A stretch of 64,000 nucleotides of DNA, from NCBI RefSeq assembly GCF_051903065.1, contig NZ_CP178439.1; one strand, written 5' to 3'. A program made the position numbers. Below are positions 57,001 to 60,000 of the stretch, piece by piece; position 1 is the first letter of the stretch, and the number at the start of each line of letters is the position of its first letter. The DNA comes from Escherichia coli (lineage in GTDB: Bacteria > Pseudomonadota > Gammaproteobacteria > Enterobacterales > Enterobacteriaceae).

Positions 57001-60000
57001 CTCTGGCATCACTGCTCCACGATGCACCCCGATCAGCTTAGCGTCTGAAAATGAAGATGCACCGGACCTGCATGAAGCGGAACGGTGCCCAGCTGAGTGT
57101 TTGTGGGCACAATGAACCGCAATTTCATGATGGGAATGAAAGATGGCTGGTGGCCCGCTGATATGAACGCTTACCCTGCATAACGTTACTAACCACAATC
57201 TTTTCACTAAAAGAAAAAAGGGTTCCTCCGCTTTAGAGGAACCCTTTCAAAAGGTGCCGATGGCATACTAATCCACACCCTGAAAAGAGGGGGGTTGCCC
57301 CCCTCTTTGTCAGCTACTTACCGGATTCGTAGGCCAGGATAGCAAATACCTCCCTTGTTCCGTCTTTCATCCGCAACTCGCAAAGCGAGTTTCGTGTGAG
57401 CCAGGTGAATATCAACAGCGTTAAACAAACTATTAATATGCACAAAACAATGGGTTGGTTCGGCATTTTCATGGCCTTCTTCTCCTTGCATTTAAGCAGG
57501 CAAGAGGCTACGCTGTGTGTGACTAGCATACAGGGGCCTCGGGTTGTACTGACCCCAGAAAGTTGGACAGTTAAACACGAGGCATATAGGTCTGATTCCG
57601 ATATTCAATTGGAGTCAGACCTTTTAATTTCAGGCTAATTCTTCTGCTGTTGTAGTATTCAATATATTCCGTAACAGCATCCTTCAGCTCGCTTATATTA
57701 CTGAACTCATCAAGATAAAAACACTCCGACTTTAAGGTTCCAAAGAAACACTCCACCACAGCATTATCCAGACAATTGCCTTTTCTGGACATGCTTTGTT
57801 TAATACCATGTTCTTTAAGGATATTTTGATATCTTCTCATACGATACTGCCATCCCTGGTCAGAGTGCAGAACAGGATGCTCGTGAGGATTAAGCTTTTT
57901 GAATGCCTGATCGAGCATATTCTCGACCATGTTCATCACTGGTCTTTCCGAAAGGCTGTAAGAAATAACTTCGTTGTTGAAGAGATCTATTACTGGAGAC
58001 AAATACAGCTTGCGCCCATTGACTGCAAATTCAGTAACATCGGTAACCCACTTCTCGTTTGGCCGCGTAGCCTTGAAATCTCTTTGGAGAACATTGGGGG
58101 CGGTTTGCCCTACCTCTCCTCTGTAAGAGCGGTATCGCTTGACCTTAATCGCTGCCTTCAGTGAGAGGATTCCCATCAGGCGCTGAACAGCTTTATGGTT
58201 AATCTGTTTCCCTTCTCGATGAAGAGACAGCGTTACCCTACGGTATCCGTATCGGCCTCTATTCTCATGATAAATCTCACCAATACGCTTTTTAACGTCC
58301 GCATACTTGTCAGGCTTGCTGAGAGCCTTTAGATGGTAATAAAACGTACTGCGCGGTATCTCCGCAGCCCTGAGAAGCTCATCAAGAGGATAAAACTGCC
58401 TTAGCTCGTTGAGTACTTTCACTTTTTCGTGGGATGAGCTAAGGCTTTCAGCTTTTTTAGATACACAAGCCGCGTTTCAAGAAATCGAACTTGCCTTTCA
58501 AGATCCTCAATGCGTCGGTCTTTTGACAGCTCCAATGCTGATGCCGCTTTTTCTGGATCAACTGATATTGCAATGTTTCTTTTGGTGCCAATCTTGAGCG
58601 CGCGTAAACCAGCTTCTCCGCGCTCTTCATAAACCTTCAGCCACCTGGCTACAGAACCACTACCAGCAAGCATAAAGTGAGCAGCAGCCTGATTAAGGGA
58701 CATGTGCTGCTCGATCACCGCTTTCACGACCTTAATACGCAACTCAGGATCAGCACTAACACCTTTAGGTTTGGGAATTAAACCTTTTTCTCCATGTTTT
58801 TCATAGAGGGCAACCCATGTCCTGACCTGGGTTCGGGGGACACCAAAACGTGCCGAGATGATCCTGTAACCATCATCAGTAGTGAAGTAGTGATTCACGA
58901 CTTCAAGGCGCTTTTCAAAAGGGTATTTTGGCTTTGACATATCAGGGGCTATTCCATTTCATCGTCCAACAAAATGGGTGCAGTACAGGTTAATTGAAAA
59001 ATTACTCGGGGCTTTCTGCTTTTACCACAGTCAAACAGTGTTACCGCTGGCTGGGGCAAAAGCCTCCAGCACCAGCGTCATTATATCACTCTGCCCTGAT
59101 CAGCCAAACACCCTGCCTGCATAAATCATTGATTTATAATTTATTTGACATGAGTCACTTCCGGTTGTCGGAGACAGTCTTTTTACACTAAAGAAAAGGG
59201 TAACGGGCAGCTGCTTGGTCGGAACATACAGTGCAGTTCCTGCCCGTTTAATTTCCGGATGCAATGGTAGGATCAGGAGGCACTGGTTCCGTTGATTAGG
59301 GAAAGCTTATGTGCCTGAATACGGCTGTATTCGAGATGGGATGGAATATTACAGATGCGCTCCAGTCGATCATGCAGCCTCGTGTAGGTCAGTCGATGAA
59401 TACCGGACATTTCATCAAGTAGCCAGCGCTTGATGTAAGGGTTACAGGAAAGCCGGGCAAGATCGTCGTCATCCACTTCGTCAAAGAACCAGTACTGCTC
59501 CATCGGGACTACCTGAAATATCCACGGCCGGGGATAGTCCCCTGTGACAACCAAAAACCATGCGAGAAAGCATAGACACAGCTCAACGATCATCAGCATC
59601 GAAAATTGCGAATAACTTAGACCAGGCACATAGGGTGAACTATCCGCAACATACCCCCTGAACAATTCCGCCACAAGGTAGCCCAATAGCGACAAGGCCA
59701 GCATCAGGGTCAGGATTAATCCCCCATTAAACGCTACCGAAGCCTTTTGAACCCGATCAGGTGCTGTCCGGCTGCGATAGTTGGTCACTACTCTTTCTAC
59801 AAGTGCCCTTATGGCAGCCTGTTCTTTACTGACATCAGCTCCGGAAAAACCGGACGGGCTTTTATTTAATTCAGTCATACCCCACTCCTGTTATGTGCTC
59901 TACTGAACAAACACGTAGATCATACAGAGCTCACGGACGCACTCCTGCCAGATAAAGGAGGGAATTTGGCTGTAAGACGGTTAGCCAACAGTTCAGGTTA

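Follow-up and report, generated by a model that had tools for sequence, protein, structure and literature searches.

The window analysed here is a 64,000-nucleotide (nt) stretch of Escherichia coli DNA (RefSeq assembly GCF_051903065.1, contig NZ_CP178439.1), in which a hok toxin gene is separated from its upstream control region by an insertion sequence (IS). We consider that this is probably the hok/sok locus of an IncHI2 plasmid backbone, a type I toxin-antitoxin system of post-segregational killing, which a variant of IS150 has interrupted and whose killer function is disabled. As can be read directly from the window, the insertion parts the hok promoter and two elements of the hok leader, tac and ucb, from mok, hok and the fbi element, and cuts the gene for Sok, the antitoxin RNA, after about 24 nt.

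Interruption of the hok/sok locus by IS150

The toxin gene itself is intact. Open reading frame (ORF) calling and profile matches identified a hok ORF of 52 amino acids (aa; MKMPNQ...AYESGK) at 57314-57472 on the minus strand. Its product is a small hydrophobic toxin of the Hok/Gef family, scoring 64.5 bits against Pfam HOK_GEF (PF01848; cut-off 22) and 122.8 bits against the NCBIfam Hok subfamily model NF007279 (cut-off 73). A terminator scan and folding placed an intact GC-rich stem-loop directly 3' of hok (57284-57308, minus strand), the counterpart of the hairpin at the 3' end of the processed hok mRNA of plasmid R1. The complete 52-aa Hok ORF with a 3' hairpin that was described in an earlier note on this DNA was thus borne out. 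Upstream, a mok-type start in the hok frame opens an intact 71-aa ORF (57314-57529, minus strand), an arrangement also annotated for mokC and mokA. The Mok frame of the R1 type is open from codon 14 only, giving a 57-aa ORF (57318-57491) that covers DUF5431 positions 14-70, and is closed upstream by TAA. The in-frame mok start is a lineage trait that is also present in the uninterrupted allele and was not caused by the IS. The mok Shine-Dalgarno (SD) sequence, GAGG at 57537-57540 on the minus strand, was assigned from its sequence and from positional homology with G105-G108 of R1, and the retained copy of the target duplication (GGT, read as ACC in the hok sense) puts 4 nt between this SD and the IS150 end.

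The inserted element occupies 57545-58987 on the minus strand and is a 1443-base-pair (bp) variant of IS150, recognised by its ends, its ORFs and its near-identity to the reference. It has the termini TGTACTG...CAGTACA, and 17 of its 1443 positions depart from the K-12 copy of IS150 (98.8% identity). Both of its ORFs are open, with orfA (58419-58940, minus strand; 173 aa) containing an HTH_28 domain and orfB (57571-58422, minus strand; 283 aa) an rve domain, as found by ORF and Pfam searches. An A AAA AAG motif for -1 frameshifting lies at 58452-58458 (minus strand), and relatives of this copy are annotated with a "programmed frameshift". Flank comparison revealed the duplicated GGT on either side of the element, at 57542-57544 and 58988-58990. 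Its length and terminal repeats, its overlapping orfA and orfB with a slippery site, and the 3-bp duplication all assign it to IS150 of the IS3 family, and the earlier description of an intact IS150 with a GGT duplication therefore stands. The transposase genes and hok are co-directional, and the IS ends 72 bp upstream of the hok ATG, in good agreement with the distance of about 70 bp first given. In the hok sense, the insertion site reads TTAACC^CGAGG and falls between nt 86 and 87 of the mRNA. In the uninterrupted mRNA, a single nt separates this point from the mok SD downstream of it, and the point lies within the stem of the Sok hairpin. Chance and an assembly artefact were both rejected, since the junctions recur at 100% identity across hundreds of independent complete plasmid assemblies.

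The earlier note proposed that the uninterrupted locus be rebuilt by joining 57544 to 58991 and searched for mok, sok, fbi and tac. When we did so in silico, dropping the IS and one GGT, all of these were found in the resulting 705 nt, which are identical at 705/705 positions to the IncHI2A plasmids NZ_CP022165.1 and CP070398.1. The Rfam sok model RF01794 (157 positions, spanning the hok leader and ending at the hok ATG; gathering score 59) matched this empty-site allele in one piece with 81.1 bits. In the window, the match is split: model positions 1 to ~84 lie at 59074-58991 and ~85-157 at 57544-57470, with 46.7 and 34.4 bits respectively, both below the gathering score, and the leader is no longer contiguous.

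The reconstructed mRNA runs for 420 nt from ~59073 to the terminator. The hok/mok promoter (TTGGCT, 16 nt, TG-TATAAT; 59080-59107, minus strand), with 10/12 matches in a consensus scan, now points into the left end of IS150. The putative 5' end of the mRNA, placed from position 1 of the Rfam model and the fold, carries the tac element (GGUGCUGGAG; 59064-59073, minus strand). In the minimum-free-energy fold of the 420 nt, the two ends of the molecule are paired, nt 1-8 and 10 with nt 375-368 and 366, so that tac finds its partner in the fbi element (CAUCGGCACC; 57253-57262, minus strand). The same fold pairs AGCCCCG (nt 61-67) with the GAGG of the mok SD (nt 88-91). This AGCCCCG is the ucb, or anti-SD, of the hok leader (59007-59013, minus strand), equivalent to A70-C74 of R1 (PMC9841398), and it now lies 1.4 kb from the mok SD. 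The intrinsic terminator of the hok mRNA, a stem at 57216-57248 followed by a T run (57206-57248 in all, minus strand), was found both by the terminator scan and in the fold of the reconstructed mRNA. End pairing together with ucb/mok-SD pairing is the architecture described for R1 (PMC9841398). An R1-type comparison mRNA was rebuilt from an IS150-interrupted IncF plasmid (locus L004) and folded likewise, and relative to it two tac/fbi pairs of the IncHI2 mRNA carry compensatory changes, from C3-G to U3-A and from U7-A to G7-C. These compensatory changes and the shared fold support that the IncHI2 locus is a bona fide hok/sok relative. Both pairings hold for the reconstruction only; in the window, the partners sit on opposite sides of the IS.

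On the far side of the IS (58991-59107) lie the hok promoter, tac, ucb and, on the opposite strand, the Sok stem-loop and terminator. The hok side retains the mok SD and start, hok, fbi and the terminator, together with the sok promoter and ~24 nt of Sok on the plus strand. The putative sok promoter (TTGCAT, 17 nt, TACGCT; 57486-57514, plus strand) is intact; it was placed by positional homology only, in a by-eye alignment with the R1-type locus (L004) and hokB/sokB, and falls below the threshold of the consensus promoter scan. The first ~24 nt of the Sok gene, comprising the 5' recognition tail and the start of the stem (57521-57544, plus strand), were delimited by homology to the annotated 5' end of sokB and by the native Sok fold, and they are now fused to IS150. 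The orphaned 3' part, with the loop, the 3' arm and the U tract, lies at 58991-59023 (plus strand; Rfam match and fold). The window thus holds no complete Sok gene, the promoter and ~24 nt being at 57486-57544 and the remainder at 58991-59023. The earlier note had the mok and sok promoters lying at the insertion. Neither promoter was hit and the sok promoter stays with hok, but the Sok transcript and the hok leader are indeed split. We also looked for a complete mok/sok regulatory region on the hok side and found none, the Rfam sok model being divided by the IS.

With hok/sok (parB) of R1 and its IncF homologues, the locus shares a Hok/Gef toxin, the RF01794 leader once the IS is removed, tac/fbi pairing, the ucb/mok-SD hairpin, the GC hairpin 3' of hok, and a Sok with a 5' tail and a terminator hairpin. 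It differs from R1 in its Hok protein (~65% identical to R1 Hok by residue count), in a mok start that opens the 71-aa ORF in the hok frame, where R1 uses an overlapping frame, and in the splitting of the unit by IS150. The likeness to the IS-inactivated chromosomal hok loci of K-12, to which the earlier note had pointed, holds as well, an IS lying in the regulatory RNA region next to an intact toxin ORF. In K-12 hokA/sokA::IS150, the element likewise sits in the Sok hairpin and mok leader beside an intact toxin ORF, flanked by mokA and sokA, which are annotated as pseudogenes. However, the hokA IS150 has the opposite orientation and no target duplication, and ~40 nt of the leader are missing, whereas the insertion in the window is clean and reversible in silico. 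Other IS-inactivated hok loci on the K-12 chromosome are hokC::IS186 and hokE::IS186.

Expression of the interrupted toxin gene

The insertion would leave hok without a promoter of its own, and a consensus scan found no promoter-like site directed toward hok at the IS150 end. In RNA reading through from the IS, the mok SD is predicted to pair with an IS150 sequence: in these folds GCCUCG, from the last codons of orfB, pairs with the CGAGGC that contains the SD, and the predicted probability of the SD being unpaired is ~0 in both full-length and 3'-shortened read-through RNAs. The tac element, needed to open the mRNA for translation, would no longer be close by. In R1, Hok is no longer translated once a single substitution weakens the tac stem or strengthens the sequestration of the SD (PMC9841398). 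Because no promoter faces hok, the SD is sequestered in the predicted folds and R1 provides this point-mutation precedent, we judge that the toxin is silent and its killing function lost. Silencing had been raised as a possibility in the earlier note, and from the scan and the predicted folds we infer the same. On this modelling, the hok/sok locus would almost certainly not be contributing to the maintenance of this IncHI2 plasmid. The allele would then have spread by descent in a successful IncHI2 lineage as a tolerated relic, and we regard it as probably a common, disabled relic rather than a new system.

Several observations weigh against this reading. The case for silencing is built on promoter scans and on folds predicted from thermodynamics. 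Both ORFs, hok and mok, have stayed intact, as have the sok promoter and the 3' structures. Since the flanks match the uninterrupted allele at 100% identity, the sequence shows no decay by which a loss of function could be proved. Moreover, sense transcription from the hok promoter would now enter IS150, whose hairpin lacks a U tract in that direction, so that long read-through transcripts reaching hok could be made.

As the main alternative, it is conceivable, though in our view rather unlikely, that the locus has instead been rewired, with a chimeric Sok'-IS150 RNA of ~110 nt neutralising hok read-through transcripts from the hok and IS150 promoters. Some toxin-antitoxin behaviour, or at least a safe containment of hok, would then persist. 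The putative sok promoter and Sok nt 1-24 are intact, and a 15-bp hairpin with a U run in the right end of IS150 (57588-57622, plus strand; terminator scan and fold) is oriented to stop transcripts from the sok promoter and should end such an RNA. The predicted chimera keeps an unpaired 5' tail of 15 nt, compared with 10-13 nt in native Sok folds, and this tail is reportedly the part of Sok that recognises hok mRNA, as Thisted et al. are said to have described in EMBO J in 1994. The Hok ORF is intact in every interrupted locus that we inspected; intact ORFs are, however, expected anyway after a recent insertion. Co-directional insertions, which give rise to the chimera, occur in 966 plasmids against 2-3 with an opposite insertion, but these record counts reflect the clonal spread of a few events, and counted as independent events the figures become ~6-7 co-directional and 4 opposite. 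We therefore set orientation bias aside as functional evidence. Also speaking against rewiring is a second insertion, of IS421 in the 3' hairpin, which is tolerated in many copies.

That Sok is lost while hok is expressed from IS150-derived transcription, with chronic low-level toxicity or persister-like effects, appears very improbable. In its favour, the mok SD and both ORFs, mok and hok, are undamaged and follow the orfB stop at a distance of 35 nt, and the natural anti-SD, ucb, has been removed. Against it, the allele is carried by 690 plasmids and ~10% of complete E. coli genomes, which is hard to square with a membrane toxin left unrestrained. In the predicted folds, moreover, GCCUCG sequesters the mok SD, and the lack of an outward promoter-like site in the consensus scan leaves the earlier suggestion that hok is driven from within IS150 without support, even if read-through across the IS may still occur.

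A recurrent insertion site in hok/sok loci

Insertion points are written here in the hok sense, and the plasmid junction searches required 80% coverage of the junction query. The IS150 variant of the window's IncHI2 plasmid entered TTAACC^CGAGG co-directionally, with the duplication ACC. A sister IncHI2 lineage (L007) carries ISKpn8, also co-directional, at the same nucleotide and with the same duplication as the window. This ISKpn8 shares only 94.4% identity with the IS of the window but matches at 100% the ISKpn8 copy carried by an IncF plasmid of Klebsiella, and the insertion was therefore an event independent of that in the window. Also co-directional are IS150 at ACCACCA^CGAGG in an R1-type IncF plasmid (L004; duplication CCA), IS150 in the loop, 14 nt upstream, in an IncFIA/FIB plasmid (L006; duplication TTC), and ISKpn8 at TTAACCCA^CGAGG in a K. 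pneumoniae IncF plasmid (L005; duplication CCCA). Insertions of IS150 or ISKpn8 in the opposite orientation are seen in IncF, IncI2 and K. grimontii plasmids (L013-L015), 0-2 nt away from the common point and with various duplications. The K. pneumoniae and K. grimontii plasmids (L005 2653-4095 and L015 2068-3510) agree in their ISKpn8, in its TGGG duplication and in the flanks, but the element is inverted in one relative to the other; the pair represents either two opposite insertions at one site or an inversion in situ.

The coverage rule biases the plasmid junction searches toward this site, which weighs against the recurrence seen among plasmids; unbiased support comes from a search with hokB and from published experiments. 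For the former, the intact K-12 hokB locus was used as a query against 5415 complete E. coli genomes. hokB was whole in 4489 genomes, and there were ~630 extra match places. The split hokB records that were sampled all break at query position 296, which is homologous to the site in the window (L012 443-445), and the two that were inspected have a co-directional IS150 at the break (L019, L020 2497-3939), one with the duplication GTT. It thus appears that ~630 of 5415 E. coli chromosomes, roughly 11% of hokB loci, are split at the homologous base. One of the two inspected records (L019) has an extra CAG between the IS end and the flank. The IS150 of K-12 hokA/sokA, in the same hairpin, adds another independent use of the site.

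Among published experiments, evolution lines acquired IS150 at hokC(-71) in 3 cases, at hokC(-88) in 1 and at mokB(-13) in 5 (PMC5419217 supplement). On the REL606 and K-12 sequences, hokC(-71) and mokB(-13) map directly 5' of CGAGG, and the hokC(-71) duplication is GGT, as in the window. Only the hokC positions (16,972 and 16,989) were mapped directly on REL606, mokB(-13) being placed via the K-12 annotation; the published trg/mokB and hokE coordinates follow another reference frame and could not be mapped onto REL606. Mutation-accumulation lines yielded 10 trg/mokB IS150 insertions, for which the authors use the term hotspot (PMC5289635). Structural variants at mokB recur across the populations of the long-term evolution experiment (LTEE), with insertions fixed in 50% of them (PMC4301190), and Durrant et al. 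name hok/sok among the genes near insertion hotspots of mobile genetic elements in E. coli and K. pneumoniae (bioRxiv 10.1101/527788). The hot spot is already in the literature at gene-interval resolution; what is added here is that the same Sok-hairpin position is used in all these loci and that the IncHI2 allele is a further instance. The trg-mokB (hokB/sokB) hot spot of E. coli B shares with the window the homologous nucleotide 5' of CGAGG and a 3-bp G/T-rich duplication. It differs in being chromosomal, in having been seen as new mutations, and in being described by gene interval and not by position in the Sok hairpin.

A separate observation concerns a second type I system, ldr/Rdl. If the K-12 sequence is equivalent, ldrB(-84) insertions of IS150 in E. 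coli B map within the terminator hairpin of RdlB (L016 ~895; K-12 rdlB 859-924), with a GTT-type duplication, and IS150 may also favour this antitoxin RNA hairpin.

We propose that IS150-family elements prefer this sequence or structure, a proposal largely borne out by the same few nucleotides having been struck independently in many hok/sok loci. The recurrence could alternatively stem from selection and not from transposase preference, either because survival is limited to insertions that inactivate hok without unleashing it, or because inactivation of hok/sok is beneficial. The authors of the evolution experiment read the insertions as an adaptive loss of redundant functions (PMC5419217), Durrant et al. 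propose an adaptive strategy (bioRxiv 10.1101/527788), and the fixation of mokB insertions in half of the LTEE populations (PMC4301190) points the same way. However, the 10 trg/mokB insertions arose in mutation-accumulation lines, in which selection is minimal (PMC5289635). Inactivation would be possible anywhere from the promoter to the end of hok (>300 nt), yet most events fall within ~3 nt and all within a hairpin of ~30 nt, and IS150 and ISKpn8, in both orientations, use the same phosphodiester. We thus consider selection an improbable source of the recurrence, and target preference the reading to be followed.

As to what might be preferred, the right end of IS150 has AACACGAGGC at 57570-57583, within ~40 nt of its tip, and this resembles the target AAC(C)CGAGGC (57535-57544). 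R1-type loci share the string CACGAGGCAT with the IS150 right end at 10/10 positions. Local alignment of the targets with the IS150 ends, judged against shuffled targets, gave only AAC(A/C)CGAGGC with the right end; P was 0.003 with the R1-type target and ranged from 0.05 to 0.37 with the remaining ones. Since the targets are homologous to one another, the resemblance of the target (AACCCGAGGC) to the right sub-terminal sequence, though real, counts as a single weak observation, and it is offered as a hypothesis only.

A broader idea, which we put forward tentatively and hold to be doubtful, is that the IS150 family homes in, to the exact nucleotide, on the terminator hairpins of antitoxin RNAs from type I systems, namely Sok in at least 8 hok loci and perhaps Rdl. 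Guidance by the resemblance between AAC(C)CGAGGC and AACACGAGGC is possible. The insertion might then be self-disarming, in that GCCUCG would act as a substitute anti-SD for mok, and the terminator brought by the IS would make the truncated Sok a stable chimeric antisense RNA. If true, this would account for how insertions that cut Sok can be survived, and for their presence in ~75% of IncHI2-type hok loci in PLSDB and in ~11% of E. coli hokB loci.

Plasmid context, prevalence and implications

The interrupted allele is common. The IncHI2-specific upstream flank is joined to an IS150-family end in 690 PLSDB plasmids and is uninterrupted in 231, the interrupted share being ~75% of the IncHI2-type hok loci in this database. 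Of 5426 complete E. coli genomes, 574 contain the 2.1-kb configuration in full. We found no publication on IS150 in the IncHI2 hok locus.

Many copies of the allele also carry IS421 in the GC hairpin (GGGGGG-N-CCCCCC), with 57290-57302 duplicated (L001, L018). The IS421 there is 1337 bp long (L001 4154-5490, L018 3066-4404), and it is absent from the window copy. In REL606, hokC has IS421 at the equivalent hairpin position (L009 1-326), and insertion of IS186/IS421 in the GC hairpin downstream of hokC/gef constitutes a second IS hot spot of hok loci, to which the IS421 of the sister IncHI2 plasmids corresponds. Alleles with neither IS, with IS150 only, with IS421 only and with both all exist on 100% identical flanks, which indicates recombination or repeated insertion. 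The occurrence of IS421 in many copies fits a locus no longer under constraint.

Positions 22138-51342 of the window follow, in collinear order, the transfer region of pSTM6-275, an IncHI2A plasmid. Positions 1-22137 form a resistance region that has several IS26 copies and differs from that plasmid. It is delimited by matches to the IS26 region of pSTM6-275 in both orientations, four full and one partial (1025-1845, 3024-3845, 7111-7411, 14032-14851 and 21318-22137). The same IS26-rich resistance region contains an Rfam match to AgrB, the antisense RNA of the dinQ/agrB type I system (9399-9486, minus strand; 68.8 bits against a gathering score of 40), and quick, simple motif searches found no DinQ ORF near it.

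For IncHI2 plasmids of this kind, "hok-sok present", as reported by polymerase chain reaction or annotation, can mislead. The finding in itself is an ordinary one, and further work might be repaid only by the hot spot, precise to the nucleotide and shared across loci, and by the possible Sok' chimera. On chromosomes as on IncHI2, IncF and IncI2 plasmids, hok/sok is cut at the same nucleotide by a single IS family, and a mutational hot spot, rather than selection alone, therefore looks to drive much of the "decay" of type I toxin-antitoxin systems. This bears on how type I toxin-antitoxin loci are gained and lost, and provides a clean natural target for studies of target choice in the IS3 family.

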